From a virus (Duplodnaviria > Caudoviricetes), in the IMG/VR virus record IMGVR_UViG_3300033066_000778, positions 89,959-153,958 of that record: 64,000 bases of DNA; one strand, given 5' to 3'. Below, in pieces: positions 4,979-37,039 of the stretch. Numbering within the stretch: the first letter of the stretch is position 1; every line of letters starts with the position of its first letter. The translations under genes were made by a program, and so were the position numbers. The notes under the pieces are model-generated. The model saw only the letters and a program-made list of their open reading frames with translations. It had not been told where the DNA came from and did not search any database.

Positions 4979-5012
4979 ACAAAATAATGTACACTAAAAA
5001 AAGCAAAATGTC

Positions 5013-5054
5013 AAGGCAGTCTCTAAAATCATATAAAGTTTTAGAGACTGCCTT
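5013..5054. terminator. long perfect hairpin inside the tRNA operon
   Basis: aaggcagtctctaaaa / ttttagagactgcctt. Confidence 0.5.
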
Positions 5055-5061
5055 TCTAATA

Positions 5062-5136
5062 TGGCTCGGTTGGTAGGAATTGAACCTACGACAGTTCGAT
5101 TAACAGTCGAACACTCTACCACTGAGTTACAACCGA
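5062..5136 (-). tRNA. tRNA-Asn(GTT)
   Basis: TCGGTTG/CAACCGA, CTGTTAA loop, GCCA. Confidence 0.93.
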
Positions 5137-5144
5137 ATGAAACT

Positions 5145-5219
5145 TGGAGCACTGAAGTCGATTCGAACGACTGAATAGCAGGGTTGCAATCTGCCCTCTT
5201 ACCACTTGAGTATCAGTGC
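5145..5219 (-). tRNA. tRNA-Cys(GCA)
   Basis: GCACTGA/TCAGTGC, TTGCAAC loop, TCCA. Confidence 0.92.
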
Positions 5220-5230
5220 GTTATTTGAAA

Positions 5231-5309
5231 TGGGACCGGGAACTGGATTTGAACCAGTGATCTCTAGCTTATGAGGCTAGCGTGGTAGACCAGACTGCAC
5301 CATCCCGGT
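5231..5309 (-). tRNA. tRNA-Met(CAT) (initiator-like D-arm, C73 discriminator)
   Basis: ACCGGGA/TCCCGGT, CTCATAA loop, CCCA end; lacks the three G-C anticodon-stem pairs of typical initiators. Confidence 0.85.
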
Positions 5310-15365: not shown

Positions 15366-15544
15366 TTACGTTGACTCCTTAGTTTCTTCATTTTCTAAGT
15401 CAATGAGCTTGCATGACTGTTGAGAGAGGATGTCATTTAGTAACTTTAGCCTTGCGTCAGGGTCCAAACCACCGATAAGCCCATGGATCCTAAGAGTATC
15501 ATAGAGAATCTGGTAAAGGAGCAAGGCTTGATGAGAACTAATCT

Positions 15545-16228
15545 TCATATCTTTGAGCCCATAAGGGCTTCCCAAGAAACTGGAGCAACTGTACGAACCA
15601 AAGCCGAAATCGCATCAGCGTAATCTTGACTCTCTTTTTGAGCCGTAGGTGCTGCCCTATGATTTACGATACGAGCGTAAGCGTAAAGAGAACCAGTTTC
15701 AATAAACTCGGTATAAGTTGAAACAGGAAGAACCATACGCGCTTGTTCGGGACAGACATCCTCTTCCAGAAGTCTAAGGTATAGATCCCTTGCTTCGGTG
15801 TAGAAGTCCTTAATCCGGTACTTTAGGTACGTATAGTCCTCTTCATGTAGGACACGATCTGACGACCCTTGTTTCTTATCTGATGCAGCGTGTCTTAGAC
15901 TAGAAGGAAGATGAAACTCTGGATCGTCTGTAACGTAGCGACGTGAAATCTCATTACGTGAAAGACCGACCTGATGCTTAAAGTATTGACGAGCTACGAA
16001 AAAAGGCATTTTAATACGAAGCTGGATTTGTACATGGGTGAAAGGAGAGAAGTGCGGGGGTTGACTTTGCGCTAGGTAGTTAACCAGTGACCTATCCTTC
16101 ATATCAAAGATTTCTTTGTGCTTGTTGAAGGATACCCTTGCGGCATTCACAACCGAAAGGTCATTACCCATGCTGTCAATGAGACTTACGAAACCCTTAT
16201 CTAATACGTAAATGGTAGGAGGGTTCAT
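15545..16228 (-). CDS. thyX: flavin-dependent thymidylate synthase
   Basis: VVNAARVSF, HFSPF, ARQYFKH, NEISRRY, EQARMVLP. Confidence 0.95.
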   Translation of the reverse strand: MNPPTIYVLDKGFVSLIDSMGNDLSVVNAARVSFNKHKEIFDMKDRSLVNYLAQSQPPHFSPFTHVQIQLRIKMPFFVARQYFKHQVGLSRNEISRRYVTDDPEFHLPSSLRHAASDKKQGSSDRVLHEEDYTYLKYRIKDFYTEARDLYLRLLEEDVCPEQARMVLPVSTYTEFIETGSLYAYARIVNHRAAPTAQKESQDYADAISALVRTVAPVSWEALMGSKI

Positions 16229-16680
16229 TTCTCATCCATCTTATGAAGTCCGTGATTAAGACTATCGGGCTTAGGACCAAGGGTTACAACGTAAGCGAGG
16301 ATACGATTAAGAAGCCGAAGACGATTCTGGAACAATGAACGCTGCTCTTCAGTGAAAGTAACCTTCTGAATGAACTTGGCTAGAATCCTGTACGTATTGT
16401 TCATTACGTTTGTTAGCTGTTCAGCCGTAATGTCTTCGCTTTCACAATAACGATGTACACCCTTGCATGTACCAGTACACCAAACGTAATGCATGGCATC
16501 AAGATCTAGATTCTTCTTATGGGCTGCTTCCTGTGAGATCTTGAGTTGACGACGAAGCTCTCTATTCTGTTCTTTCAGTTGTTTAACTTCGTTCTTGTAA
16601 TAGTTCTCAACTTTACTCATCTTGTAAACCAGATTACTATAGTTTACAAGTAGCGCCCAGTATTTATCCAACGTCCTCAT
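16225..16680 (-). CDS. hypothetical coiled-coil protein
   Basis: 151-aa ORF. Confidence 0.6.
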   Translation of the reverse strand: MRTLDKYWALLVNYSNLVYKMSKVENYYKNEVKQLKEQNRELRRQLKISQEAAHKKNLDLDAMHYVWCTGTCKGVHRYCESEDITAEQLTNVMNNTYRILAKFIQKVTFTEEQRSLFQNRLRLLNRILAYVVTLGPKPDSLNHGLHKMDEK

Positions 16681-16937
16681 TTACCAACCTTCTTTCCATC
16701 AATAGTTGCCTCAAGACTTAGTTCGGCTCCAAAGAACGTATTGGACCCGAGTTCTTTCCAAGAGGTTCCGTCATCTGAGTATAGGACAAGTACTTTAAAA
16801 TAGCCTTGCTTTGGCTTTTCAACTGGAGCTTCCTTTACAGGTACAGTTGGCGTTGGGTTTACTTTACCTTTAGCCTGTACTCCAAAGAGAAGTCCGATAC
16901 AAAGTGGAATGGTGGCGAAACTTAGTTTACTGAGCAT
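16677..16937 (-). CDS. secreted/membrane-anchored small protein
   Basis: signal-peptide-like N-terminus. Confidence 0.55.
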   Translation of the reverse strand: MLSKLSFATIPLCIGLLFGVQAKGKVNPTPTVPVKEAPVEKPKQGYFKVLVLYSDDGTSWKELGSNTFFGAELSLEATIDGKKVGK

Positions 16938-17558
16938 CTTGCCTCACTATATAATGTCTGATAGCCATGTTACCAGCCATGAGAAGTACTGTTACGACTG
17001 CGTAGAAAAGGCTACCTTGAACTATATCGGAAATGAAGACGGCAAGGTTAAATCCTTGCGTTACATCAAGAAGCTGTATTGAGTTCTGTGTACGAGTCAT
17101 CATTATTCAACTTTAGAGCGGGCTTACTGAAGGCAAGGAGCATTTCCGTGAGTTCCTTCTTCATTGTTTCTGGAGAGAAGTAAACGTCGAATGGAACGTC
17201 CCATTGTCCGTTCGGTAGTTTAATTCCGATGAAGTACTCAGTATTTCCGTCAATTCCATCTGGATCAATAATGATTCGGTAGTCGTTTGTTTCAGTCGTG
17301 TTGCTCATTTGGTTCCCTTTCGACATTCTGTGTGTTTGCCTTGTGCCAGTCCCAAGCTTCCTTGAAGCACTCTAGGTAATCTGGTCCCTTACTGATGAAA
17401 GGTCCAGCTATTTGTTTACTAACGTTATCTTTCTTGTTTAACGTAAGATAGTATTTAAGGTTGTTGAATCGTGTACCACTGACGAGGTCAATGGCGTAGA
17501 TACTCGTAACCCTTGAAATCAGATCTTTCACGCTTATATTTACCTCCTAGGATAATAT

Positions 17559-17735
17559 ATGACAAAAGAAGAACTTGACAAGCTCCTGAAGCTAATAAAT
17601 GAGAACCCAACTGAAATTCAACTACCAAAGATTGATGATAAAAAACTACTTGATACTTATCAGGTTGGATTCTTAAACGGTTACGCTAACCTGAGAATGA
17701 AGATCAAAAGGCTGTTCATCCCACAAGGTGGTTGA
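17559..17735 (+). CDS. 58-aa lone plus-strand protein (not in ORF track)
   Basis: MTKEELDKLLKLINENP...QGG*, followed by an agctata/tatagct hairpin. Confidence 0.5.
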   Translation: MTKEELDKLLKLINENPTEIQLPKIDDKKLLDTYQVGFLNGYANLRMKIKRLFIPQGG

Positions 17736-17763: not shown

Positions 17764-18156
17764 TTAGAACGGAACCAGATACTGATCTAGTTGTTCTGGA
17801 ATTTCGTAAGTTTCTGGCCTAAGTAACAGTAGCGTTAAGCAATTATCCGAACATACAGTACGAAGAACATAAGTATTCGCCTGTTGCCACTCTGTTCCCT
17901 TAACATGGAAATATACAAAGTGAACTAGATCTGGATACGGTGGATCTTTGTAGTAATACTCTTTTTTAGGTCCGTCACAAATACAACAACCAGCAAAAGT
18001 ACATAGTGATGATGTTAGTAATACGCCGTTATCGTTGTAAACACTGATACCAATTTCTTCTACTTCAATTGGTAACAGGTCTAGCCTTAGTACATATCTA
18101 CCCTTACTTGGGGCTAGGTCATCCAAGGCTAATACAAGAGAGAAATTACTTTTCAT
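17764..18156 (-). CDS. treble-clef-like (TRASH/FCS) Zn-finger array member
   Basis: CCICD...VCSDNCLTLLLLR. Confidence 0.7.
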   Translation of the reverse strand: MKSNFSLVLALDDLAPSKGRYVLRLDLLPIEVEEIGISVYNDNGVLLTSSLCTFAGCCICDGPKKEYYYKDPPYPDLVHFVYFHVKGTEWQQANTYVLRTVCSDNCLTLLLLRPETYEIPEQLDQYLVPF

Positions 18157-18578
18157 TTAACGTCATTCATAAAGTTTATTAGACTATCTTTCCAAAGAAA
18201 CTTTACCTTTGGGTATTCTGGCGTAACACTTTCAACCAAACAAAATAAATCCAGACATTGTTTATTACAGAATGTAAAAATTCTTTGCCAGTGACTATGT
18301 GTTGAATAAAGCTCTAAATTAGCCATATTTATGTTGCTTACAGAGACGTAAACATAGAGCTTCTTCCGGTGGTATCCAAGGTCATGACGGTTTTGGTCAC
18401 AGCCCTTGCAAAACTCCCAAGGAACACGACCCCGTCCTTCAACATAGATGCAGTCCCCTATAGCTGACTGGATTTCGTCTATGCTTTCGATTTTTTCGAA
18501 TGTATAGCTGTACGTACCCGGCGAGAAAGGTGCAAAAGGCATAGGACCAAGATGCTTCCGTAGAGGAAAAAAGATCAA
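18153..18578 (-). CDS. Zn-finger array member
   Basis: CKGCD...FCNKQCLDLFCL. Confidence 0.7.
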   Translation of the reverse strand: MIFFPLRKHLGPMPFAPFSPGTYSYTFEKIESIDEIQSAIGDCIYVEGRGRVPWEFCKGCDQNRHDLGYHRKKLYVYVSVSNINMANLELYSTHSHWQRIFTFCNKQCLDLFCLVESVTPEYPKVKFLWKDSLINFMNDVK

Positions 18579-18877
18579 GGGATAGATGTTGGAATAATTT
18601 GATCATCTTCGCGGAGGAGCCAAAGGTTCTTACACTGTTCGGAGCAAAAGTAGAGATTAAGATTAGACACCAAAGCGTCATTAAAAGAAACAACAATAAC
18701 ACTTGAACTACTAACATGCTCTTTTTCACAAAAACAGCAGCTAACTTCGTGATCTAAAGCTGTAGTGAATACTTTGTTAATAACAATTTTATTATTGTTA
18801 TTTCTATAAAAAGCAAGGTAACGCTGTATAGTCTTATGCTCGGCTTCAACGCGATTGATTGTTTTTGTCTCAGGCAT
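18575..18877 (-). CDS. Zn-finger array member
   Basis: CCFCE...FCSEQCKNLWLLR; start re-assigned to MPETK. Confidence 0.7.
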   Translation of the reverse strand: MPETKTINRVEAEHKTIQRYLAFYRNNNNKIVINKVFTTALDHEVSCCFCEKEHVSSSSVIVVSFNDALVSNLNLYFCSEQCKNLWLLREDDQIIPTSIP

Positions 18878-19289
18878 CTTTGTCACACTCGCGTAATGCC
18901 CTAGCATCTGAAAGAGCATTATGTGGGATTTTGGAAGAAAAACAAGATAACCGGCTATCTACTCTGAAGGTAAGAATAGGTGTATGTAGTTCCATCCTTA
19001 TGCCAGGACCAGTTATAAGGGCATTACAGAAAAGCTTGATATCTTCAGGCCAATCAGCAATGATCGTAATCTCCCAAAACTGCCTGAGAAACTTATTGAG
19101 CTTTTCCTGAAACTTCTTGTACGTTATGGGCTTTTTATTCAAGATTGGTATTACGTTGTCTTTAACCCAAGGAACTGGACTTCGGCAAGCTAAAACCTCA
19201 TAAAACTCTTCACCAGTTTCAGCCACCAAAGCCATGGAGATTAGTTTCCCGTTGAAGCCATTAAATTCTGTATCAATATAAATGTTCAT
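18870..19289 (-). CDS. DEDD 3'-5' exonuclease (RNase AS-like)
   Basis: IDTEF...LISMALV...WVKDNVIP...HNALSDARAL. Confidence 0.85.
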   Translation of the reverse strand: MNIYIDTEFNGFNGKLISMALVAETGEEFYEVLACRSPVPWVKDNVIPILNKKPITYKKFQEKLNKFLRQFWEITIIADWPEDIKLFCNALITGPGIRMELHTPILTFRVDSRLSCFSSKIPHNALSDARALRECDKDA

Positions 19290-19681
19290 TTCTTCCTCTT
19301 ACTCCTTGTCGTTCTTCCAATAACCGCTGTGTACATCCAGTATGGTAGATTAAATGGTACGATCTGGTCACCGATCTTAATCGTTGGGTATATCCCTCTA
19401 ACAGTACTGTAAAGTAGATCTACCTCTATATCTTCTTTTATCGTGTATCGTAAACAAAACATGTCGTAGCATGGTAAGGAGCAAAAAGTGGTACAAATAC
19501 CGAAGTCATTATATACCGTGTAGAAACCTCGTTTTGTCTTTATCTGTTTTTCACACATATTACAGTTAAAACTAAGTTCAAGACTATTCTCTTTGCACCT
19601 TACTATATCACGAGTAGGAAACTCCAAAAACGCATCGTACCTCGTAGGTGGGATAACCTGTTGCCAGCCAAGTGGTATCAT
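19286..19681 (-). CDS. Zn-finger array member
   Basis: CNMCE...FCSLPCYDMFCLR. Confidence 0.7.
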   Translation of the reverse strand: MIPLGWQQVIPPTRYDAFLEFPTRDIVRCKENSLELSFNCNMCEKQIKTKRGFYTVYNDFGICTTFCSLPCYDMFCLRYTIKEDIEVDLLYSTVRGIYPTIKIGDQIVPFNLPYWMYTAVIGRTTRSKRKK

Positions 19682-19902
19682 GCGTAGTCATCCATAAATA
19701 TTCTGCCATACCGGATCAAATGCAAGGACATACATTGAATACTACAAAAATAACAGGCTGGATAGGTGCCGTCTATGTAAAAGCAAGTATAGCTGTTTGG
19801 ATAATGATTCATTATAATATCAATGATCTCTGGGTCTACAGCACAACTAATACTTAGTACTGTCCTATTATCTACTTCAGAACTACAACAAAGACAAAGC
19901 AT
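19678..19902 (-). CDS. Zn-finger array member
   Basis: CLCC...FCSIQCMSLHLIR. Confidence 0.7.
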   Translation of the reverse strand: MLCLCCSSEVDNRTVLSISCAVDPEIIDIIMNHYPNSYTCFYIDGTYPACYFCSIQCMSLHLIRYGRIFMDDYA

Positions 19903-19903
19903 C

Positions 19904-20125
19904 TTAACCTTCTCTCAAGATAAGGATGCGCTCACACTCTTCTGAGCATACAGCAACGGTAATTTTCTGTTTTAGGGATTTGTGTAATTGCATGGCTAAG
20001 GGAGACGTTGGCCTATACGTAATCTGCATGTACCTACCATTTTTAGACTCTAGCTTACTTTCACAAACATGGCAATGAAAGGTAAAAACAATGTTATCTT
20101 TATCGCCGCCTAGAGTAAATGACAT
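19904..20125 (-). CDS. Zn-finger array member
   Basis: CHVC...VCSEECERILILREG. Confidence 0.72.
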   Translation of the reverse strand: MSFTLGGDKDNIVFTFHCHVCESKLESKNGRYMQITYRPTSPLAMQLHKSLKQKITVAVCSEECERILILREG

Positions 20126-20394
20126 TAGCCTTTCCTCAAATCATAAATACCCAAACAAGCGTCTGAGCAAATGTATATGAGGGAACTTGTTGACGACCAA
20201 GTAACATAAGTATCTGAGGATAACCGGACGTAGCACTTATTCGTACCTATGTCCTCATTACAAACCCCACAGTAAATCTTTAAGGTCATCTTTACGTTAT
20301 CTTTTTGAATGTCAATAATAGAACCGTAGTTATCCGCTATATTACTAGTTTTAGCCCAATTGAGCTTGTAATCGTCTTCGTTAGTTATTGGCAT
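20125..20394 (-). CDS. Zn-finger array member
   Basis: CGVC...ICSDACLGIYDLRKG. Confidence 0.72.
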   Translation of the reverse strand: MPITNEDDYKLNWAKTSNIADNYGSIIDIQKDNVKMTLKIYCGVCNEDIGTNKCYVRLSSDTYVTWSSTSSLIYICSDACLGIYDLRKG

Positions 20395-20645
20395 CAGTCA
20401 TGTCCTTCTCGTAGGATAAACAACTCTAAACAACGGTCAGAACAGATGTACACGTTACAGGATACCGTATAGCCATATTCTCCGTAAAGCGGAACATGAG
20501 TATCTGTTGATACACGACTATAGTATGTACTATCAAAGTCTACCATTAAACCACAAACATCACAGACATGATTAACATAATACGTGAAAGACTGATTACC
20601 AGGAGGTAATGTAACAACGAGGTTATTATCCACGGCTGAGTTCAT
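20394..20645 (-). CDS. Zn-finger array member
   Basis: CDVC...YICSDRCLELFILREG. Confidence 0.72.
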   Translation of the reverse strand: MNSAVDNNLVVTLPPGNQSFTYYVNHVCDVCGLMVDFDSTYYSRVSTDTHVPLYGEYGYTVSCNVYICSDRCLELFILREGHD

Positions 20646-20817
20646 AAAGCTCCTTACACCGATCTGAGCAAAAGTAAATAAAAGTCTCGTAGCGAGGGGG
20701 TTTAGCTTGCACTTGCATATGCAAAGTACACAAAACCTGATTTATCGTCTTAACAGGGTTACCACACTGGAAACAAGGAGTTTCACTGATTAACGACGTA
20801 TAAAAGAAGTGGATCAT
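20626..20817 (-). CDS. Zn-finger array member
   Basis: CFQC...FCSDRCKELYELSRG. Confidence 0.72.
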   Translation of the reverse strand: MIHFFYTSLISETPCFQCGNPVKTINQVLCTLHMQVQAKPPRYETFIYFCSDRCKELYELSRG

Positions 20818-21086
20818 ACACTCTCATTTGTATACGGTTCGTAAAACAGAGGCTTTAATACTATACCCTGTTCTACACTAAACATATCCAAACATACGTC
20901 AGAGCAAATATAACTTGGTTTAACAAAGTCTGTCTCAGAAATAATGTGTACAGTATGTACCCATCCGCTCGTTGTTATCTTGGTTTTACAGACATAACAA
21001 TACGTATCCAAAGGTAATAGTCCTATCTCTAAAGATAATAGTCCTATCTTTATAGAGTATCCCTGGCAATAGAATCTATCGGGCAT
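20814..21086 (-). CDS. Zn-finger array member
   Basis: CYVC...ICSDVCLDMF. Confidence 0.72.
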   Translation of the reverse strand: MPDRFYCQGYSIKIGLLSLEIGLLPLDTYCYVCKTKITTSGWVHTVHIISETDFVKPSYICSDVCLDMFSVEQGIVLKPLFYEPYTNESV

Positions 21087-21087
21087 T

Positions 21088-21273
21088 TTATACCCTCAGC
21101 ATTTGTATGTTCATACACTCTTCTGAACAACAGTAATAGTAATGTTCATAATATTGACTTCTTCGCTCTATTACTAAATAACAAATCATATCTTTTTCTA
21201 CTTGTGTATCACATACTGGACAAGACATAGACCCAAACGGTGATTTCGCTCTTCCAGTGGATACAATACTCAT
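21088..21273 (-). CDS. Zn-finger array member
   Basis: CPVC...CCSEECMNIQMLR. Confidence 0.72.
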   Translation of the reverse strand: MSIVSTGRAKSPFGSMSCPVCDTQVEKDMICYLVIERRSQYYEHYYYCCSEECMNIQMLRV

Positions 21274-21482
21274 TAGCCTAATCTCAGTAAAAGAAAATCT
21301 CTACAAGCAGTTGAACAACAGTAGGAAACACACTCAATTTGTATAGCATTGGGCTTTTCATACGCTACTGAATAACATACTGATCTTGGCTTTATTTCAG
21401 CTTCACATACTGTACAAAACAACTTGTAAAAAGCATTATTTGTATAAGGGACTTTTATCGTACCAGAATATGTAATGCTCAT
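21273..21482 (-). CDS. Zn-finger array member
   Basis: CTVC...CCSTACRDFLLLRLG. Confidence 0.72.
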   Translation of the reverse strand: MSITYSGTIKVPYTNNAFYKLFCTVCEAEIKPRSVCYSVAYEKPNAIQIECVSYCCSTACRDFLLLRLG

Positions 21483-21679
21483 TATCCAATCCTCAGTATA
21501 AACAAGTCTTTACATTGCGTTGAACAACAAAAGCTTTTAACCCTGGATGGAACGAAAGCCCAAAGAGTATAAGTAATTTCAAAGTAGTTATAATGTGCTC
21601 TGATGTCTTTATCGCAAATGGAGCAAATCAGATCTACTGGAGTAGATCTCCAATCTACGTCTACAGCCCTTATAGCCAT
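21482..21679 (-). CDS. Zn-finger array member
   Basis: CSIC...CCSTQCKDLFILRIG. Confidence 0.72.
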   Translation of the reverse strand: MAIRAVDVDWRSTPVDLICSICDKDIRAHYNYFEITYTLWAFVPSRVKSFCCSTQCKDLFILRIG

Positions 21680-22041
21680 TGGATCACGTCGTCATTTTCG
21701 TCGGGAGGCATGTAACACCCCGCATTCAGACAAAACAGAGAAACACACTGATCCGAACAAAACAGTAATGCAATCCCCATGATAAATCTGTTAGGAAACG
21801 AAGCCGGGTTAATCAAGGCCAAAATGGGTTTAAACCCCTGACGAAGCAAGGGGTCATTAAGATTCTTACCAGAAGAGATGTCTGCTGTCAACTCAAAGAA
21901 GCACATCAAGAACGAATCGTCTTTACCAAGTTTCTCGTTACACATAAAACATTGTTTTTTACCAGAAACCAAAGGGTCATCACGTTTTACGACGAATTTC
22001 TTGCTATACAGATCATAGATGTCTTTTATCTTAGTGTCCAT
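21670..22041 (-). CDS. Zn-finger array member
   Basis: CFMC...FCSDQCVSLFCL. Confidence 0.72.
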   Translation of the reverse strand: MDTKIKDIYDLYSKKFVVKRDDPLVSGKKQCFMCNEKLGKDDSFLMCFFELTADISSGKNLNDPLLRQGFKPILALINPASFPNRFIMGIALLFCSDQCVSLFCLNAGCYMPPDENDDVIQWL

Positions 22042-22331
22042 TCTGCCTTCTTTAAACCTCGCCAGTTAATCTTCGAATACGCGTCACTGGAAATATAGAA
22101 CAAATCGTGGCAAGGTCTAGTACAAAAATACAAAAGCTTATCAGTAAAAGCGTTAGGATGCCTTAGCATCATATAGTAGTAAGGTTTATTACCAATTTCT
22201 TTTTTACAGTAAAAACAATATTTAATTACGTCAGGACCATCTGCCTTCATTTTATAAAGGGTATTCACGTCATGGCGAACTTTAGGTCTTTTTCGTTTAA
22301 TACTCATAGTGATTCCAAAGTTATTGCTCAT
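22026..22331 (-). CDS. Zn-finger array member
   Basis: CFYC...FCTRPCHDLFYI. Confidence 0.72.
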   Translation of the reverse strand: MSNNFGITMSIKRKRPKVRHDVNTLYKMKADGPDVIKYCFYCKKEIGNKPYYYMMLRHPNAFTDKLLYFCTRPCHDLFYISSDAYSKINWRGLKKAEWTLR

Positions 22332-22564
22332 AAGGATCTAACCAGCCATAATTCTAAGCAGGATTTAGAACAAAACCAAACAAACTCTAAGTTAATGCTA
22401 ACCAAAGAATTATCGTTTAAACTCTCTGAGTAATATGCCCGTTTTTCTATCGAAAGTAGTTGAGTTACCATAGAATCTGAACAACCATCACACGCATAAG
22501 GGTAAGGACTGCTTAGCTTAGTGCTGTTGTACTTTCCATACTTATACGATAAGTTTTTAGCCAT
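22328..22564 (-). CDS. Zn-finger array member
   Basis: CDGC...FCSKSCLELWLVR. Confidence 0.72.
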   Translation of the reverse strand: MAKNLSYKYGKYNSTKLSSPYPYACDGCSDSMVTQLLSIEKRAYYSESLNDNSLVSINLEFVWFCSKSCLELWLVRSL

Positions 22565-22859
22565 TATCCAATACCCAAAGTTCCTTACACATTTTAGAGC
22601 AAAAGAACTTTATTTCCTCTGTTTTGCTGGCGGGAAACATAATACCGTCACGCTGTACAACATGATATCTGCGTTCTATGTATAACACTCTATAATGGCA
22701 GAAACCAGAAAAGTCACATCGTTCACAAGTTCGCCACTTACCAACTTTAAGTTTTCGTATACCAATATCTACCGCACGACAAATTCTTAACCAGCCGTTT
22801 GCACTATTGATATCTTTTAATTTAATGATCTTATTATTCATACGTGACACAAAGCCCAC
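22557..22859 (-). CDS. Zn-finger array member
   Basis: CERC...FCSKMCKELWVL. Confidence 0.72.
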   Translation of the reverse strand: MGFVSRMNNKIIKLKDINSANGWLRICRAVDIGIRKLKVGKWRTCERCDFSGFCHYRVLYIERRYHVVQRDGIMFPASKTEEIKFFCSKMCKELWVLDNG

Positions 22860-23131
22860 AACTGCTTACATTGCTCAGTACAAAAGTAATAATAAGAATG
22901 GTATTTATCCAAAAGAGTTTCTATCTCACTTTCCCCAATCAAGCTTTTTTCTGTCATCACCTTAATAGTATAAGGACACGGAACCTCTCGTCTGCAATGC
23001 GTACATACAAAAGTACCTTTGTACTTACGACGACTTCTCCTGGTATTGAGAGAAATCTCCCTAGTGTATTTTATCTTTTTTCCACTAGTATACGGAAAAA
23101 ACACGTCTTTTAGTTTAAGGAATTCAGACAT
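22838..23131 (-). CDS. Zn-finger array member
   Basis: CTHC...FCTEQCKQLWAL. Confidence 0.72.
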   Translation of the reverse strand: MSEFLKLKDVFFPYTSGKKIKYTREISLNTRRSRRKYKGTFVCTHCRREVPCPYTIKVMTEKSLIGESEIETLLDKYHSYYYFCTEQCKQLWALCHV

Positions 23132-23378
23132 TACTCAATACCCATAAATCACAGCATAACTGGGAACAGAAGTTAAGCTGTATATTATAGAAAAACTCCT
23201 GATCACCATTAAAGCGTTTCTTATATAACTTAGTCTTTAACGTAATCAAAGTACCCACTGAATCACATCGATCACAAGTATAAGGCATGTAATCCATTTC
23301 ATGACAAACGCACTTAAACCTAGCATCGAACCGTTCATCATTAAGTTTATTTCTCATCCGCACTCCCGTAACAACCAT
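23124..23378 (-). CDS. Zn-finger array member
   Basis: CDRC...FCSQLCCDLWVL. Confidence 0.72.
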   Translation of the reverse strand: MVVTGVRMRNKLNDERFDARFKCVCHEMDYMPYTCDRCDSVGTLITLKTKLYKKRFNGDQEFFYNIQLNFCSQLCCDLWVLSNV

Positions 23379-23617
23379 AATTCAGTACATTGCTTACTAC
23401 AAAAAAAGTAAAATAGTTTTTCTTCACAAGTTTGCTTCGTTCTCTTATACTCTGCTTTAAGTATTACCCGAAGTCTAAATCTACAACTATACTCGCCACA
23501 AAACCGACATGAAGCTTCTTCTAATCTGACTTGCTCTTCTGGTGTACAGCTAATAATTACTACTTGTCGGTAATATTGGGTATTCATAAGCTCTTCAGTA
23601 AAAAAGACTTCAGGCAT
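23354..23617 (-). CDS. Zn-finger array member
   Basis: CRFC...FCSKQCTELWLLR. Confidence 0.72.
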   Translation of the reverse strand: MPEVFFTEELMNTQYYRQVVIISCTPEEQVRLEEASCRFCGEYSCRFRLRVILKAEYKRTKQTCEEKLFYFFCSKQCTELWLLRECG

Positions 23618-23801
23618 TTGCTAAATACCAAAGTTTAGCACAGGATAGAGAACAAAAGTAATATCTTCTTTTATACACGAAGCCTAAATACCGAGTTTTT
23701 TCTACTATCCAGTACCTGCAACCTTTAGTATCGCAATGATGACAGACAAAACCCCGTCGTAAGGCAATTTTACTGATTCTGGAATAAGTGATATCAGGCA
23801 T
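23610..23801 (-). CDS. Zn-finger array member
   Basis: CHHC...FCSLSCAKLWYL. Confidence 0.72.
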   Translation of the reverse strand: MPDITYSRISKIALRRGFVCHHCDTKGCRYWIVEKTRYLGFVYKRRYYFCSLSCAKLWYLANA

Positions 23802-24066
23802 GACTCAAATAATAGATATTAGCACATTGTTTAGAACAGAAGTATAGTCTACCCGAAGCATCACGTAAATGTCGTAAAGTATCAGGAATCCAGTAATTCT
23901 TAACCAAGGAAGTTTTAACCGTCATCTTAATACTGTAATTACAACCGAACTTGGAGCAGGTTAAACAACTATACTCCCTTACCTTCCCTTTTCGGGGAAC
24001 GCTGTAATGAGTGGTTGTTATCGTTTCGGTTTTATAATCCGTAATCATGTGAAAAGGTCTAGTCAT
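23794..24066 (-). CDS. Zn-finger array member (first gene of the array)
   Basis: CLTC...FCSKQCANIYYL. Confidence 0.72.
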   Translation of the reverse strand: MTRPFHMITDYKTETITTTHYSVPRKGKVREYSCLTCSKFGCNYSIKMTVKTSLVKNYWIPDTLRHLRDASGRLYFCSKQCANIYYLSHA

Positions 24067-24081
24067 CGCTCATAAATATAT

Positions 24082-24118
24082 ACCTGGGATTGTTAGTATT
24101 CCAGGTTTTTTTGTTTTT
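24082..24118 (+). terminator. intrinsic terminator at the strand switch
   Basis: acctggga/ttccaggt hairpin followed by a T-tract. Confidence 0.55.
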
Positions 24119-24237
24119 ATCCTTTTAGCCCCTTGCTGCCCCCGAAGACCCCATACGCCCATTAACCCCTTTAATTACTTTTATATATCGCTTTTTAACT
24201 TGATTTCTAAAAACGACTCGTTAGGGGAAATGACCCG

Positions 24238-24266
24238 TTGACATCTGGGCATAGGGGGTAGCTAAT
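24238..24266 (+). promoter_or_regulatory. putative sigma70-type promoter of the GC-rich block
   Basis: TTGACA-17-GCTAAT; first hairpin begins at 24273. Confidence 0.5.
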
Positions 24267-24272
24267 TCATTG

Positions 24273-24800
24273 TCCCGGCGAACCGGGAGAGCAAGGGGCA
24301 GGTGTAGGTCACGGGCGGTTGAGAGGCCGTCTAGGGCTGACCCTGCCCAACACTGGCTCGCGCCACGATGAGGCGACAATCGTAGGCGCAGGATGTGTGT
24401 GTAAGTAAACCATCCGCCAGAACCCCCTTCCCAACATTGGAGGGGACTCTCTCTTCGCGGAGGTTAACAATCCGCGTAGTGACCCTAGCACAGATAGCGC
24501 CGGTATGGACTCACCGAACACCGTATGGTGAGGAAGTATCGGAGGTGACTAAAGGTAGTGTAAAGGTAGCACCTTACACTAGCGGTTCGTGGGGACTCCG
24601 AAACCCCAAATAACAAAAGGTTTTCTTTTTCAATGTCCTATCACCCGATGGGGCGGTTAAGAACGCAGTGGTTTCAAGACCACAGTGTCATGCGTTCGAC
24701 CATTGGGTGATAGGCTCACTCCAGGTAGCGTAACACAGCGACGCCGTGCGATGGCGGGGGGACATAGACTAGCGACCTATGTCCCCTTTGTTGCGACGGG
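24273..24800 (+). ncRNA. large GC-rich structured RNA / leader of unknown class
   Basis: At least 10 helices, e.g. tcccgg/ccggga, gggcag/ctgccc, ctggc/gccag, ccccttcc/ggagggg, cgcgga/tccgcg, tagtgtaa/ttacacta, cctatcacccgatgg/ccattgggtgatagg, ggggacatag/ctatgtcccc; no credible ORF. Confidence 0.65.
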
Positions 24801-24802
24801 AG

Positions 24803-24860
24803 GATGGGACGAAACAGAGTTCGCCTGTATGGCTTTGAAAAGCCACTGATGAGTCCCGTC
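24803..24860 (+). ncRNA. hammerhead ribozyme, type II
   Basis: GATGGGAC-GAAA-CAG[agttcgc]CTG-TA^-TGGCT[ttgaaa]AGCCA-CTGATGA-GTCCCGTC; complete core; predicted cleavage after A24829 (GUA). Confidence 0.92.
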
Positions 24861-24887
24861 ATCAGACTGAAACGCAAGGAGGTTCCC

Positions 24888-25316
24888 ATGCGGAACCGCG
24901 CTTCCCTCATTGACCTGAACATCCTCGTGTCCTCCATCCCCGTGTCCGCCCCCGAGACCCGGCAGGGCCGGGTCTTCGCCGCCGCCTGGGCGAAGGCGGA
25001 CGCGGCCTGCGTGGCGAGGCTGAAGGCGCGGCGGGCCGAGATCTCCGCCGCGTGGGCGGAGAAGGAGCGGGCTGAGAAGAAGGAGCGGATCGCCGCCATC
25101 CAGGCGGCGAAGGACCGCGCTGAGGCGCGGCGGGCCGAGGCCCGGAAGGTCGGGGCGGCCCGGCTGCTGAAGGCCGAGATGGAGAGGCAGGAGGCACTCG
25201 CCCGCATCGAGGCGGGCGGGCTGCTCGATGCCATGAAGGGCAAGATCTCGGAGCCGGACGGCATCCGGCTCACCAAGGAGTTGGCGGACATGTTCGCCGC
25301 CTTCGGGGAGATCTGA
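24888..25316 (+). CDS. Ala/Arg/Glu-rich helical protein, first gene after the ribozyme
   Basis: AAGGAGG RBS, ATG at 24888 (not 24804); very high GC. Confidence 0.75.
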   Translation: MRNRASLIDLNILVSSIPVSAPETRQGRVFAAAWAKADAACVARLKARRAEISAAWAEKERAEKKERIAAIQAAKDRAEARRAEARKVGAARLLKAEMERQEALARIEAGGLLDAMKGKISEPDGIRLTKELADMFAAFGEI

Positions 25317-25378
25317 TCTCCCCGAACAGCCACCTCACCGTTCGCAAGACCGGAACGATGTCGGTGGTCGAGAAGTAA

Positions 25379-25483
25379 ATGGAATTCATCGAGAGCAATC
25401 TGGTAGAGATTGCTTTCAGTCTGATAACGCTCATCGTGGCCTGTGCGTGCTATGTGGGCACAAAAGAAAATGAAGGAGAGTAA
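25379..25483 (+). CDS. 34-aa single-TM peptide (not in ORF track)
   Basis: MEFIESNLVEIAFSLITLIVACACYVGTKENEGE*. Confidence 0.4.
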   Translation: MEFIESNLVEIAFSLITLIVACACYVGTKENEGE

Positions 25484-25484
25484 C

Positions 25485-26405
25485 ATGAACAAGATGAATT
25501 ACGCGTTCGACGTGGACGCCCTGAACAACATGCCAGAGATCACGCGGATTGGCACCCACAATGGCGTCTTCCATGCGGATGATGCCTTCGCGTGCGCGGT
25601 GCTGACCGCGCTGTGGCCGGATGTGTGGATCATCCGCACCAGGAACCCGAAGGATCTGGCCTCGTGCCAGCTTCGGGTGGATGTCGGTGCGAAGTACAAC
25701 CCGGCGACGGGCGACTTCGACCACCATCAGGGGAAGATCCTACGGGAGAATGGAATCCCATACTCCTCCTTCGGTCTGATCTGGAAGGAGTACGGGTGGC
25801 TCTTCTTCCCTGGCTGCCCTGAAGCCGCGAAGGAAATCGAAGAAGGGCTCGTCTATCAGGTTGACGCCACGGACTGTGGCTTCAGCCTCTTCACCCCTCT
25901 GACTGAGGAGGCGAAGTTCCCATACTCCGTCTCGTCCGTCATCTCCTCCCTGAATCCGGGGTGGAATGAGGGAGGAGACTTCGATGCGAGTTTCGAGCAG
26001 GCTGTGAAGCTCGCCCGTCAGATCCTCTGGAGGGAGATCTCCCGCGCGAAGGGGACGCTGGAGGCCGAAGGGATCGTGAAGGATGCCCTTGCCAAGAGGG
26101 AGGATAAGCGGGTGTTGATACTCCCGCAGTTCTGCCCCTGGCAGGAGGTCGTCTCTTCCGACCCGGATGTCCTCTACGTCCTGTTCCCCTCCGAGACGGG
26201 GGACTGGCGCATCCAGACGGTGCCTGAAGAACCCGGCTCCTTCAAGGCACGGAAGAGCCTCCCGGCTGCGTGGGGTGCGAAGAGGGATATGGATCTCTTC
26301 TTCGCCACAGGGGTGGAGGACGCAATCTTCTGCCACCCAGGATTGTTCATCGCGGGCTGCAAGTCCCGTGAAGGCGTCCTGAAGATGGCCGAGATGGCCC
26401 TGTAA
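25485..26405 (+). CDS. MYG1 (UPF0160) family metal-dependent hydrolase/exonuclease
   Basis: IGTHNGVFHADD, RTRNP, VDVG..Y.....FDHHQ, YSSFGLIW, FCHPGLFIAG. Confidence 0.92.
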   Translation: MNKMNYAFDVDALNNMPEITRIGTHNGVFHADDAFACAVLTALWPDVWIIRTRNPKDLASCQLRVDVGAKYNPATGDFDHHQGKILRENGIPYSSFGLIWKEYGWLFFPGCPEAAKEIEEGLVYQVDATDCGFSLFTPLTEEAKFPYSVSSVISSLNPGWNEGGDFDASFEQAVKLARQILWREISRAKGTLEAEGIVKDALAKREDKRVLILPQFCPWQEVVSSDPDVLYVLFPSETGDWRIQTVPEEPGSFKARKSLPAAWGAKRDMDLFFATGVEDAIFCHPGLFIAGCKSREGVLKMAEMAL

Positions 26406-26488
26406 TCGGAGTGTCTGAGACATTCCACGAATTCAACCGCTGGTTTGACGAACTAGTCAACCAGATCAACAGAAAGAAGGAGTCTAAC

Positions 26489-26929
26489 ATGACGAAGATC
26501 AACACCCCCGCGATCGGCCACGGACCCGTCAGCCGCATCCCGCTCCCGGTCAAGGCCGGTGAGCACGTCGATCTCGATTTCTGGAGGATGCTGGGTGACC
26601 CGGCATTCGAGGGGGTGACCTTCCGGGTCCAGCGTGGGCTTCCGAGCGGATTCGAGGGGCCTGTGGCCGAGGCCCTGAAGGTGATCTACGGGAAGAAGAT
26701 TGACGACACCTTCTTCCTGTCGATCTGGGCGGGTGAGGTGAAGCGGGAAGGAAAGACCCGCAAGAACGTCAACCTGAAGAAGGCTTCGACGGGAACTCCG
26801 ACTGACCTTCCGGGTGTTGGGGCCATCCCTGTTGGGTACGGGGAGCACGACATCAGAATCCTCCTTCGCTGCATGTTGAGCGCGAAGGTTACGAACGACG
26901 ATAAGAAGAACGATCAAGTCAACTTCTAA
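26489..26929 (+). CDS. hypothetical protein, paralog of 27272..27655
   Basis: AAGGAG RBS; VQRGLP...FFLSIW...NF*. Confidence 0.7.
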   Translation: MTKINTPAIGHGPVSRIPLPVKAGEHVDLDFWRMLGDPAFEGVTFRVQRGLPSGFEGPVAEALKVIYGKKIDDTFFLSIWAGEVKREGKTRKNVNLKKASTGTPTDLPGVGAIPVGYGEHDIRILLRCMLSAKVTNDDKKNDQVNF

Positions 26930-26958
26930 CAAACCTTACAAAGAAAAGGAGTATAGAC

Positions 26959-27189
26959 ATGGCCCGTAAGACTGAACAGGAAAAGCGCAATGAAAGGCGG
27001 ATTGCCAAGGTCCAAGAGCGGGTCATCGCGGCCCGTCGTCTCTGGTGGAACAAGGATGAAGAGGCAGGAATCTACAGGGAGAAGGGCTTCGTCGCCTACT
27101 CCCAACAGTTGAAAAGTGAAGCTGAAAAGCTTTACGAGGCTTACCTCGATGAAGAGTCTCGCCTCTATGCCCTGAAGGGGAACAAGTAA
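26959..27189 (+). CDS. hypothetical protein
   Basis: AAGGAG RBS, 76 aa. Confidence 0.7.
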   Translation: MARKTEQEKRNERRIAKVQERVIAARRLWWNKDEEAGIYREKGFVAYSQQLKSEAEKLYEAYLDEESRLYALKGNK

Positions 27190-27193
27190 GGGC

Positions 27194-27208
27194 ATAGGAA
27201 TCGAACCC
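27194..27208 (+). repeat. dispersed ATRGGAATCGAACC motif, copy 1
   Basis: ATAGGAATCGAACCC. Confidence 0.8.
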
Positions 27209-27271
27209 GTATCGTCGTCAGTAACAGCATCAAATAACAAAGTACAAAAAGCAGTCCTTAAGGAGGACAAA

Positions 27272-27655
27272 ATGAACCAGACCAACATCGACACCAACAC
27301 CGCCGAGGGCTTCATCAACAAGCTGACCGCTCAGGGTCAGTACGATTACTTCCGCCTTCACCGCTTCGCCGGTCACAACACCTTCGGGGGAACGCTGATC
27401 AAGGTTCAGCGGGGTGTCCCCGAACAGTACAAGGCCAACTTCCCCGATTGTCAGGACAGGTACTTCCTGTCGATCTGGAAGTACACCGAAGTGGCAGGGA
27501 ACGTCACCCTCACCACGAGACTGTCGAAGGAGACGATGCACTTCGACAAGGACACGGCTGTCCTCATGCTCAAGCTGATGGGCCTGAAGTGGGGAGGCAT
27601 CGTGGCATCGAAGCACAACCCCGTCAACACCCCGAAGGCCAACAACAACTTCTAA
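27272..27655 (+). CDS. hypothetical protein, paralog of 26489..26929
   Basis: AAGGAGG RBS; VQRGVP...YFLSIW...NF*. Confidence 0.75.
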   Translation: MNQTNIDTNTAEGFINKLTAQGQYDYFRLHRFAGHNTFGGTLIKVQRGVPEQYKANFPDCQDRYFLSIWKYTEVAGNVTLTTRLSKETMHFDKDTAVLMLKLMGLKWGGIVASKHNPVNTPKANNNF

Positions 27656-27668
27656 GTAAGTAGTTTAA

Positions 27669-27700
27669 CGGGGCTTAAGGCTGAAAGGTCTTAGGCCCCA
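27669..27700 (+). terminator. hairpin/terminator
   Basis: ggggcttaag/cttaggcccc. Confidence 0.5.
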
Positions 27701-27731
27701 TTATTCCTAACAAAAACTAAAGGAGAATAAA

Positions 27732-28373
27732 ATGAGCCGTTCTTACTCCACCTACAAACGGGATTACGCTTACAAGGTTTCGGACCCTTCGACTCCCGAT
27801 GTGAAGGTTCGGGAATACTTCATCAAGGACAACGAAGAGAAACTGGAACTGTTGGCAAGGAACGAACGGTCTCAGAAGTACAACTACGGGAAACGGGGAT
27901 CGGCAATCATCAAAAGACAGATTGTCGAAGGTGTCTTGAGGAAGACAAAGAACGTTCGGGCTGCTTACCGGGCGTTGATCAAGAAGTCTCCGAAACGTAT
28001 GTGTGCTGAAACAGCATTCGACTGGTTCGGTGTATTGGATATGACCCATTGCACGGAACGAATCGAATGGAGACCGAAGTTCTTTGTGGATGGAGAGAAC
28101 GTTCGTCCTGGTACTGAACTGATCGAGACAGAAGCCCGGAACCCCAAGTGGAAGAGCCTGTGGAATTCCAAACCACCAACACCTGAAGAGGAACTCAAGA
28201 GAAAGAAAAACGATCTCCTCTTGAGTATCAGGGATAACAAGGATTACCTCAGACGGCTCGAATGGAGAAAGGAAACCATCGAGAGGTTCGCCAAGGCAAC
28301 TGTACAGGAAGCAATCGAAAGGACCAACGAAAAGATTGCTGACCTTTACAAGCAACTGAGCAACCTGAAGTAA
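27732..28373 (+). CDS. hypothetical basic protein
   Basis: 213 aa, AAGGAG RBS. Confidence 0.7.
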   Translation: MSRSYSTYKRDYAYKVSDPSTPDVKVREYFIKDNEEKLELLARNERSQKYNYGKRGSAIIKRQIVEGVLRKTKNVRAAYRALIKKSPKRMCAETAFDWFGVLDMTHCTERIEWRPKFFVDGENVRPGTELIETEARNPKWKSLWNSKPPTPEEELKRKKNDLLLSIRDNKDYLRRLEWRKETIERFAKATVQEAIERTNEKIADLYKQLSNLK

Positions 28374-28511
28374 TGGAAATCCAGCACGGTCAGTGCCGAT
28401 GCTGGGATGAGGAATAAAGATGATTGAAAAGTCAATCCTCTGCTTCCTGTGCGTCACAGTATGGATTCTCTTCGTCCGTGACGTCATCAACTTCTACAAG
28501 GAGTACAGGTA

Positions 28512-36995: not shown

Positions 36996-37009
36996 TCTCT
37001 AAGTAAACG

Positions 37010-37039
37010 AGGGGGTTAATTAGAAATAGTTAACCCCCT
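37010..37039 (+). terminator. hairpin, exact duplicate of 39413-39442
   Basis: AGGGGGTTAATTAGAAATAGTTAACCCCCT. Confidence 0.75.

Follow-up and report, generated by a model that had tools for sequence, protein, structure and literature searches.

What does a phage do with 22 small, strongly diverged cysteine proteins that are encoded side by side? This question is raised by positions 17764-24066 (minus strand) of a 64,000-nucleotide stretch of DNA, here called the window, which belongs to the 154-kb contig of an uncultured, very distant T4-like myovirus. The array contains 23 consecutive ORFs, of which 22 encode Cys4 mini-proteins of 61-141 aa. All of the gene junctions are overlapping or abutting, with gaps of -50 to +1 nt (ATGA, TAATG, ATGnnTGA), and this packing makes a single operon of 23 genes with translational coupling, read out from the strand switch, the most likely arrangement. 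The features of the locus, from the strand switch to the gene that closes it, are as follows.

24067-24830, no strand assigned: strand-switch region without ORFs, enriched in GC and strongly structured, immediately upstream of the array
23794-24066, minus: member 1, first gene of the operon, 90 aa, basic (+9), five-Cys subtype
23610-23801, minus: member 2, 63 aa, basic, five-Cys subtype
23354-23617, minus: member 3, 87 aa, five-Cys subtype
23124-23378, minus: member 4, 84 aa (77 aa by the database gene call)
22838-23131, minus: member 5, 97 aa, basic, five-Cys subtype
22557-22859, minus: member 6, 100 aa from GTG (94 aa by the database call), basic, five-Cys subtype
22328-22564, minus: member 7, 78 aa
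22026-22331, minus: member 8, 101 aa, basic (+12), 80% identical to its L021 orthologue
21670-22041, minus: member 9, 123 aa, inter-knuckle loop of 60 residues, 80% identical to its L021 orthologue
21482-21679, minus: member 10, 65 aa, CCS type
21273-21482, minus: member 11, 69 aa, CCS type
21088-21273, minus: member 12, 61 aa, CCS type
20814-21086, minus: member 13, 90 aa, not present in the relative L019
20626-20817, minus: member 14, 63 aa, 73% identical to its L019 orthologue
20394-20645, minus: member 15, 83 aa, 89% identical to its L019 orthologue
20125-20394, minus: member 16, 89 aa, orthologues 93% (L022) and 49% (L019) identical
19904-20125, minus: member 17, 73 aa, positional counterpart in L022 35% identical
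19678-19902, minus: member 18, 74 aa, first knuckle at residue 3
19286-19681, minus: member 19, 131 aa, C-terminal tail of 60 residues
18870-19289, minus: probable DEDDh 3'-5' exonuclease, not a member, 139 aa
18575-18919, minus: member 20, 114 aa
18153-18578, minus: member 21, 141 aa from TTG (129 aa by the database call)
17764-18156, minus: member 22, last gene, 130 aa, orthologue 83% identical with dN/dS ~0.07
17559-17735, plus: locus-closing gene on the opposite strand, 58 aa, with homologues after the arrays of L004, L005, and L001-3

The array promoter is likely located in the region at 24067-24830, together with a divergent structured RNA. The 22 members share the motif C-x2-C, a 23-60-residue spacer, and then [FIVC]-C-[STN]-x2-C-x2-[LIM]. 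In a MAFFT alignment no column is invariant other than the start Met and the four Cys, and column identity averages 15%. Every one of the 22 frames is intact and carries all four Cys; cysteine makes up 6.6% of the array, compared to 1.2% of large ORFs. The motif is present in 22 of the 24 minus-strand ORFs of at least 60 aa inside the array, the remaining two being the exonuclease and a shadow ORF, and in 4 of 388 ORFs of at least 60 aa elsewhere on the contig, all four of which are genuine dispersed members. Chance is ruled out as the source of this excess. The array had been noticed in an earlier note made from the sequence, and its description stands, including the exonuclease as lone interruption: this gene features DEDDh-type motifs and matches Rv2179c-like 3'-5' exoribonucleases weakly (Pfam E 0.006; PDB 6s0m/4oke E ~0.01). 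At least five dispersed family members on the contig, outside the array, had been overlooked.

47450-47848, plus: dispersed member, 132 aa
47861-48124, plus: dispersed member, 87 aa
49104-49634, plus: dispersed member with a C-terminal extension of ~100 aa, 176 aa
40564-41133, plus: dispersed member, paralogue of 49104-49634, 189 aa
41418-42014, plus: degenerate two-unit member, 198 aa, fourth Cys lost from the first unit
22064-22309 of the contig: further family member, beyond the window

Sequence and fold comparisons point, weakly but in agreement with each other, to membership of the domain in the TRASH/YHS/FCS/eL24 treble-clef superfamily. In a set of 73 members taken from six phages, the shared signature reads C-x-[VI]-C ... 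[YFW]-[VFLI]-C-S-x2-C-x-[NED]-[LMI]-[WFY]-[LIV]-L, with the four Cys invariant. The family profile retrieved YHS-domain proteins from 1.84 billion representatives (E 5e-8 to 1e-4), and from the PDB it retrieved archaeal eL24 and a YHS-like domain (E 0.014). The AF2 model of a 69-aa member (member 11, pLDDT 82.8) features a knuckle, a beta-hairpin, and a C-terminal helix, with the third and fourth Cys located at the strand end and the helix start, and the same core elements are modelled at lower confidence in a second, divergent protein, member 1. Foldseek gave eL24 as the best match (prob 0.98, E 0.17), the nearest named cluster in the ESM Atlas is a phage zf-FCS cluster, and an hhalign superfamily comparison reached a probability of 55% over 25 columns. 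No family match above threshold was obtained in Pfam, PHROGs, or NCBIfam, and all of the Pfam matches were sub-threshold. The core of the fold is predicted to be a single Cys4 metal site of the TRASH/FCS (treble-clef) type, in which the C-x2-C knuckle and the C-S-x2-C at the start of an amphipathic C-terminal helix would clamp a small beta-hairpin. The constant part of these proteins, which the earlier note proposed as a docking surface, is first of all the fold core, because it is the zinc site and the helix bearing two of the ligands.

The treble-clef likeness put forward in the earlier note is thus borne out by the YHS and eL24 matches and by the modelled elements, while its two narrower comparisons are not. 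The ClpX N-terminal Zn domain was rejected, since the second knuckle of ClpX is C-x2-C and no ClpX model matched at E ≤1. YacG, an inhibitor of E. coli DNA gyrase, is likewise a small stand-alone Cys4 protein with F-C-S-x2-C; however, the Pfam YacG model reached E 0.37 only, in one member, and the NCBIfam model 0.083. The C-terminal tail of YacG enters GyrB, and the array members feature no equivalent of this tail.

TRASH-type fingers (YHS PF04945, zf-FCS/MYM PF06467, Arc_trans_TRASH PF08394, DUF7576 PF24461, and eL24 PF01246) share the C-x2-C ... C-x3-C ligands with the array family, and in both an aromatic-aromatic-C-S-x2-C opens the helix; the profile matches are weak and reciprocal. However, no array member attains any curated threshold. 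The inter-knuckle spacer in the window exceeds the ~20 residues that are canonical for TRASH, the helix closes with four conserved hydrophobics and the stop usually follows ~10 residues past the last Cys, and the proteins are stand-alone, phage-only, and arrayed. Bacillus phage G features a lineage-specific zinc ribbon expansion of ~35 copies (Iyer et al. 2021, PMC7824862), which likewise consists of tens of diverged copies of a small zinc-binding domain without known function in a large phage. The array family is distinct from these ribbons: the profile found nothing credible in phage G (one match, E 0.028, within a 693-aa ORF), and the copies studied here form one tight operon at a locus that is conserved between distant phages. 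The earlier statement that no such phage system had been described therefore holds for the zinc family, but not for the expansion. The family is new, and paralogue expansion in large phages is of a kind already known.

The locus arose by an old tandem expansion, specific to this lineage, of a phage-specific family of mini-proteins. The farther apart two paralogues lie in the array, the less similar they tend to be (Spearman -0.25, permutation p 0.0008), in agreement with the tandem duplication proposed earlier; the sub-clades of neighbours proposed with it hold in part, the best partner being an immediate neighbour in 8 of 22 members. All of the paralogues are old (25-41 bits, 15-25% identical), and a search for recent DNA duplicates in the array found none. 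Arrays of 4 to 25 copies occur in at least five other metagenomic phage lineages, and the family was not found in the nearest cultured phages, T4, or Bacillus phage G. The window and L004/L005 share a GC-rich ORF-free region, an array, and a homologous 58-63-aa gene on the opposite strand, and because this layout and the closing-gene homologue are shared, the L004/L005 array demonstrably occupies the same locus. The number of copies varies, even between near-identical strains: L019 lacks one member and has an additional one, the near-identical L004 and L005 differ by one member truncated in L004 and by two extra members, and 5 genes stand ahead of the same orthologue in L026 vs 16 in L005.

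Orthologues in sister fragments retain their gene order, with identities of 35% to 93%, and L022, a sister phage, carries the exonuclease at the same position (83% identical). Paralogues differ in everything outside the core, namely the tails, the N-terminal strand, and a loop of 19-73 residues; within each orthologue these parts are conserved. The comparison of loops and knuckles suggested in the earlier note shows purifying selection in both, with pooled pN/pS values for orthologues of 0.178/0.562 (core) and 0.220/0.637 (variable parts). Values well below 1 in core and variable parts, together with the retained order, indicate real genes, probably with individual functions. The array can tentatively best be viewed as a panel of small binders, decoys, inhibitors, or adaptors directed against host, defence, or competitor-phage targets, which would serve in takeover or counter-defence much as the earlier note proposed.

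It is also possible, if somewhat unlikely, that the members are nucleic-acid binders that use the zinc finger as a binding module, either as regulators of transcription or translation or as structural DNA/RNA-binding proteins. The nearest folds include eL24 and the PARP-1 fingers, which bind rRNA and DNA, respectively, but the structural matches are to generic treble clefs with low Z (≤5.3). Six of the 22 members are strongly basic (+5 or more) and are grouped toward the promoter-proximal end, whereas the majority are neutral or acidic (median +1, range -7 to +12, three at -5 or below). A 207-aa protein of the same genome (2432-3055) couples two similar finger motifs to a PD-(D/E)xK-like part (E 0.0038). 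The exonuclease inside the array fits this role as well; however, it is lineage-specific and was not found in the arrays of L004, L005, and L012. Transcription-factor or structural DNA-binding roles were suggested for the phage G expansion by Iyer et al. (PMC7824862), yet 28 distinct regulators would far exceed the expected need of a 154-kb phage.

A role in capsid assembly, in which the members modulate folding or assembly of the major capsid protein or poison co-infecting relatives via contact motifs, is improbable. It is prompted by two syntenic L004/L005 members in which stretches resemble residues 65-82 (E 2.5e-6) and 422-441 (E 1.5e-8) of gp23, the two most conserved gp23 motifs of the phage clade. 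The second motif is itself under selection in a diverged orthologue that is 58% identical: it shows 6 synonymous changes and 1 conservative change in 13 codons, compared to 11 non-synonymous changes in 15 codons of its flanks. However, the L026 orthologue, itself truncated, lacks the other capsid-like piece. Such look-alikes were seen in 2 of ~75 members examined, no borrowed motif is detectable in the window's own members, and 20 or more unrelated variable bodies would be left unexplained. The loop of L005 4795-5178 copies a clade gp23 segment that aligns to T4 gp23 residues ~78-113. The first quarter of gp23 is its most conserved region and bears Gol, the peptide that the Lit protease senses via EF-Tu (review PMC3014915). 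The L005 piece falls in this quarter, but it belongs to the L005 array rather than to the window and has no counterpart in the L026 orthologue.

Metal handling is very improbable. In this reading, which follows proposals made for the TRASH/YHS domains of cells, the proteins would buffer or chaperone zinc or copper, and their many copies would act as a metal sink during infection. The four metal ligands are the sole invariant residues and the nearest cellular relatives of the profile are YHS domains of copper-handling proteins, but a dosage function predicts copies that are alike, the variable part of each orthologue is under purifying selection, and the lone Cys4 site of a treble clef usually has a structural role. 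That the ORFs are filler of a hyperplastic region, having little or no function and persisting through duplication and drift, is scarcely credible and largely refuted by the selection data, even with shifting copy number between near-identical strains, a truncated L004 copy, and no matches in curated libraries or known function, given the intact frames and a locus that is conserved across phages despite near-complete divergence of the member sequences.

In the panel reading, each protein would be a small binder in its own right, with a minimal zinc site as its scaffold, and the members jointly would form a set of inhibitors, decoys, or adaptors, each with a different target; the mixed net charge fits such varied targets. 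As the two capsid-like L004/L005 members suggest, at least some of the family may act through mimicry, presenting a short stretch copied from a conserved motif of another protein. The genes of the panel would be gained, lost, and replaced as the targets change.

The zinc-finger gene array described in the earlier note is real: 23 consecutive minus-strand ORFs span 17764-24066, and 22 of them (61-141 aa) share a cysteine motif. In the 22 members this motif consists of C-x2-C, a spacer of 23-60 residues, [FIVC]-C-[STN]-x2-C and then hydrophobic residues. A MAFFT alignment of the members features only the start Met and the four Cys as invariant columns, with a mean column identity of 15% and no conserved block of 7-10 columns, and the net charge of the proteins is mixed, from -7 to +12. 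Within the array the motif is present in 22 of the 24 minus-strand ORFs of at least 60 aa, versus 4 of 388 in the rest of the contig, and all four of these are genuine dispersed members. All gene junctions in the array fall between -50 and +1 nt (ATGA, TAATG, ATGnnTGA), a packing that makes the block look like one translationally coupled operon. Promoter and terminator scans did not exceed shuffled expectation, and T4-type late-promoter and sigma-70 strings showed no enrichment. A five-Cys subtype (C-x2-C-x3-6-C) accounts for five of the six promoter-proximal genes and is present again in L005, an array-bearing metagenomic phage contig, so some subtypes are older than the split of these phages. 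The array contains one gene of another kind:

18870-19289, minus strand: non-member gene with DEDDh-type motifs and weak matches to Rv2179c-like exoribonucleases

This sole interruption had been named a DEDD exonuclease. There is one non-member, and D-T-E, a central acidic motif and H-x4-D are all visible in its translation, but the family matches are weak, with an E of 0.006 to the Pfam Rv2179c-like family, which is below threshold, and of 0.0075-0.011 to PDB 6s0m/4oke over residues 2-72 only. A tie between the exonuclease and the array was dropped because the arrays of L004, L005 and L012, all from other phage contigs, lack this gene.

Profile searches of the whole contig recovered the 22 array members and the following additional copies:

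Window 40564-41133: dispersed member, paralogue of 49104-49634
Window 41418-42014: degenerate two-unit form
Window 47450-47848: dispersed member
Window 47861-48124: dispersed member
Window 49104-49634: dispersed member, paralogue of 40564-41133
Contig 22064-22309: dispersed member outside the window

A profile of the array-alignment type gave 26 hits in the phage's own genome. Against 1.84 billion representative proteins the family profile found only 57 matches at E<=0.001, which comprise about 17 proteins encoded in the window itself, five close orthologues in sister phages and about 25 small proteins with the same motif; the others are YHS-domain proteins plus a handful of spurious C2H2 proteins. 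When the family alignment was used in a word-indexed search, nearly everything recovered was already known. The best PHROGs result was one member at E 0.006, NCBIfam gave no credible match, and the family was not found in the five nearest cultured phages, T4 or Bacillus phage G. The check for copy-number variation in relatives that the earlier note proposed revealed arrays of 4 to 25 members, with differences even between L004 and L005. These two near-identical contigs (L005 is the start of a 136-kb contig) carry 25 array members each; L012 carries 15, L026 about 14, L011 five and L013 four. Additionally, the database protein P0037 lies in a packed run of eight small genes. The signature drawn from 73 members in six phages reads C-x-[VI]-C, then 19-73 spacer residues, then [YFW]-[VFLI]-C-S-[EDK]-x-C-x-[NED]-[LMI]-[WFY]-[LIV]-L, and the median tail past the last Cys is 10 residues.

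The likeness to TRASH/zf-FCS treble clefs proposed from the sequence holds for the ligand pattern and the FCS motif and is compatible with the predicted topology, but no member scores above the curated threshold of YHS, zf-FCS, zf-FLZ, DUF7576, L24e or Arc_trans_TRASH. The Cys ligands, C-x2-C followed by C-x3-C as in TRASH/FCS, are invariant in all 22 array members and in the 73 members of six phages. The "FCS" motif of these 73 has Y/F/W at position -2 in 60%, V/F/L/I at position -1 in 78% and Ser after the third Cys in 89%. AF2 modeling of the 69-aa member (21273-21482) with a 66-sequence family alignment predicted three short strands and a C-terminal helix (pLDDT 82.8, pTM 0.68), with the third and fourth Cys at the strand-to-helix turn, where the helix begins. 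The divergent first gene (23794-24066) was modelled less confidently (pLDDT 60.9), with matching core elements and a disordered N-terminus. The best Foldseek matches in the PDB were archaeal eL24 (probability 0.98 but E 0.17 and TM 0.47) and then PARP-1 fingers. VIA, a search independent of Foldseek, gave Z scores of 5.3 for PARP-1 Zn2, 4.7 for eL24 and 3.6 for MYM TRASH and also found C1 domains; all scores are at or below 5.3, a range that is common for small folds and expected of any small treble clef.

Profile comparisons point in the same direction. DUF7576 has the best Pfam score, at E 0.0027 and in five of 22 members, which is under the gathering score; zf-FLZ and zf-FCS are also sub-threshold, and NCBIfam L24e matches the family at E 0.034. 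Multi-repeat YHS proteins were matched by the family profile with E values of 5e-8 to 1e-4 among 1.84e9 sequences, each match covering the second knuckle (the C-S-x2-C pair) and the helix only. An hhalign comparison gave a probability of 55% and an E of 1.2e-4 over 25 columns at the second knuckle. PDB profile matches were to eL24 and the YHS-like domain of phenol hydroxylase (E 0.014), and in the ESM Atlas a phage zf-FCS cluster is the closest one that has a name. The domain is probably a highly diverged TRASH/FCS-type treble clef, as judged from sequence and model. Two other suggested likenesses were not upheld. The second knuckle is C-x3-C in all members, not the C-x2-C of the ClpX N-terminal zinc domain, and no ClpX model (PF06689) appeared at Pfam E<=1; YacG (PF03884 / PRK01343) matched one member each at Pfam E 0.37 and NCBIfam E 0.083. 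A homodimer prediction for the 69-aa member scored 0.00 in a program in which the fold itself was uncertain, and is evidence neither way. The "constant docking surface" that had been proposed is not separable from the fold core on present data.

The window corresponds to bases 89959-153958 of a 153,958-bp IMG/VR virus record that is estimated to be 83% complete. The contig encodes a gp23-type capsid protein, a gp21-type prohead protease, a gp20-type portal with an intein, a tail sheath and a Rad50-like ATPase, as well as ThyX, a MoxR-type ATPase, a DUF2201 VWA protein, DUF932 and a SNF2 helicase. The closest cultured capsid proteins, from Listeria phage LIS04, Bacillus phages SP-15 and HSE3, a Streptococcus phage and Flavobacterium phages, are only 27-32% identical. 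More than 50 metagenomic capsid proteins are 55-93% identical and make up a sizeable uncultured clade. A megablast search of 50,697 phage records with the array and neighbouring genes gave zero matches, as did tblastn of the same records with a 763-aa neighbour and one family member, and a search for related loci with the VWA protein recovered no viral contig. The MoxR-type ATPase / DUF2201 metallopeptidase-VWA / DUF932 module at window 35892-40492 is the same as that of L012 (4461-8874; 39-53% identity), and family members come after the module in both. Inteins with LAGLIDADG endonuclease parts split a papain-like protease (window 6654-8498, minus strand) and the gp20 portal (contig 83468-86545, minus strand, equal to 3468-6545 of L010, a piece of the same contig). 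The L004 ThyX gene (15386-16957) is enlarged to 523 aa and has an intein-like segment in common with the portal insert. The window also contains a tRNA cluster:

3141-5309, minus strand: nine tRNA genes (Leu, Gly, Ile(tat), Asp, Gln, Tyr, Asn, Cys, Met)

A 207-aa protein with two FCS-like knuckle pairs (2432-3055, plus strand) adjoins this cluster. Toward its C-terminus it has weak similarity to a PD-(D/E)xK restriction-nuclease domain (PvuRts1I-like_N, E 0.0038), and it could be a homing-type nuclease, binding DNA through such fingers.

Comparison with relatives shows a conserved array locus whose gene content changes. Common to the window and L004/L005 is a layout of an ORF-free, GC-enriched strand-switch region, the array, and a homologous 58-63-aa gene on the opposite strand, and the array member sequences are barely more alike between phages than paralogues are. 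Such a strand-switch region lies directly upstream of the array in three phages (window 24067-24830, L004 2977-3911 and L026 526-1447). RNAfold z-scores are -8.7 on the strand opposite the array and -4.9 on the array strand in the window, and -6.2 on the opposite strand in L004; in L026 either strand scores about -5. Between L004 and L026 the region aligns with 73% identity over 889 nt. Rfam gave no family at E<=1 for window 24000-25000, and thus a canonical hammerhead was not recovered there. Beyond this region, a GC island at 24800-28400 (55-57% GC, against 38% for the phage) has a MYG1/UPF0160-family gene (25443-26405, E 1e-74) alongside several ORFs that match no family, and looks like a recent acquisition from a GC-richer source.

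In four sister-phage fragments (L001, L019, L021, L022) the gene order is kept, exonuclease included, with orthologue identities of 35%-93%, where the exonuclease stands at 83%; L019 lacks one member and has one additional. Most of the array is identical in L004 and L005, which are set apart by one truncated and two extra members, and one shared orthologue is preceded by five genes in L026 and 16 in L005. The serial tandem duplication suggested for the array is consistent with a drop of similarity with array distance (Spearman -0.25, permutation p 0.0008), but every copy is old. The DNA repeats detected only mirror the conserved motif, so that recent duplication and recombination repeats were dropped as an explanation.

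The comparison of loop and knuckle selection that had been called for was carried out on 14 pooled orthologue pairs, with pN/pS of 0.178/0.562 in the core (knuckles plus helix) and 0.220/0.637 in the variable parts. The variable bodies are constrained almost as much as the core. The pooled pN/pS for L004 versus L005 is 0.061/0.258, and the member at 17764-18156 has a dN of 0.089 and a dS of 1.23 against its orthologue. Synonymous sites are near saturation in the fastest orthologue pairs, where positive selection is not assessable. Because the variable parts are nearly as constrained as the core, paralogue-specific functions are favoured, and junk or a pure metal-sink role is disfavoured. The reading we prefer, to which we give a little short of an even chance, is that the members together act as a panel of small binding or decoy proteins that serve host takeover, counter-defence or competition between phages, in which a zinc-clamped minimal scaffold would bear paralogue-specific surfaces. 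Binding of nucleic acid by the members is less probable but still a serious contender; it is favoured by the folds seen among the nearest relatives, by the basic character of members close to the promoter, by the finger-plus-nuclease-like protein at 2432-3055 and by the view taken by Iyer et al. of the phage G expansion. A role in capsid assembly has a slim chance, and metal buffering is very unlikely given purifying selection on the variable parts that almost equals that on the core. Functionless filler is hardly credible with purifying selection on each copy.

Two array members of relatives hint at a possible mechanism. When all 75 members were compared by short-word BLAST with the non-family proteins of the phage itself, two significant short matches emerged, each to gp23, the major capsid protein, and each from an L004/L005 member. 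In L005 4795-5178 (L004 7068-7451) it is the loop that matches gp23 65-82 (E 2.5e-6), and in L005 5593-5898 (L004 7866-8171) it is the C-terminal tail that matches gp23 422-441 (E 1.5e-8). The look-alike pieces are 18-27 residues long, and the two gp23 segments are its most conserved motifs across the clade. P0134 (L026 2649-2969) is a 58%-identical orthologue of the tail-bearing member and keeps the 13-residue core GY[IV]YAPWVPFYKT. Codons of this core show six synonymous changes and one conservative change, against 11 non-synonymous changes in the 15 flanking codons, a contrast which indicates that the tail look-alike is under purifying selection. The L026 counterpart of the loop-bearing member is truncated and ends before the capsid-like piece. 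Capsid-protein motifs are known to be detected by abortive-infection sensors. The loop-matched segment aligns to about residues 78-113 of T4 gp23. This stretch falls within the protein's first quarter, in which a review places Gol, the segment that the Lit abortive-infection protease senses (PMC3014915). The same BLAST revealed no borrowed motif in the window's own members, nor was one found in other representative family hits; mimicry is therefore a lead for the family, not a finding about the window's array. On a speculative and rather improbable reading, the arrays would be "motif-display" libraries, in which the small zinc scaffold would display, as decoys, brief imitations of conserved stretches of phage (perhaps host) proteins, such as the capsid motifs that abortive-infection sensors recognise, blunting or mistiming sensors or hindering rival phages, and array gain and loss would track the sensors of different hosts.

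The earlier statement that no such phage system had been described holds for the protein family itself, which is not in Pfam, PHROGs or NCBIfam, but an expansion of a small zinc-binding domain, a zinc ribbon in roughly 35 copies, is on record for phage G (Iyer et al. 2021, PMC7824862). The phage G expansion is of a different family, as the family profile, run against the complete phage G genome, found one marginal match, at E 0.028 within a 693-aa ORF. Small zinc-domain expansions in large phages and TRASH/FCS fingers as a superfamily were thus already known. What is new is a family that these three collections do not cover, with arrays in at least six metagenomic phage lineages, a conserved array locus that is demonstrable in one comparison (window versus L004/L005), copy-number change between strains, and capsid-motif look-alikes in members of a relative's array, one of them under selection.

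One unnamed family of mini-proteins takes up about 4% of the phage contig and a comparable fraction in several related uncultured phages. A locus that is kept, content that turns over and purifying selection on each copy form the pattern expected of genes in host-virus or virus-virus conflict, and resemble the multigene families of large eukaryotic DNA viruses. The two embedded gp23 look-alikes, one clearly selected, provide a testable handle on possible mimicry by phages of their own most conserved, and hence most easily sensed, proteins. Additionally, the family offers a compact natural zinc scaffold in which loop insertions of 19-73 residues are tolerated, and it can serve to mark a large, uncultured T4-like phage clade.
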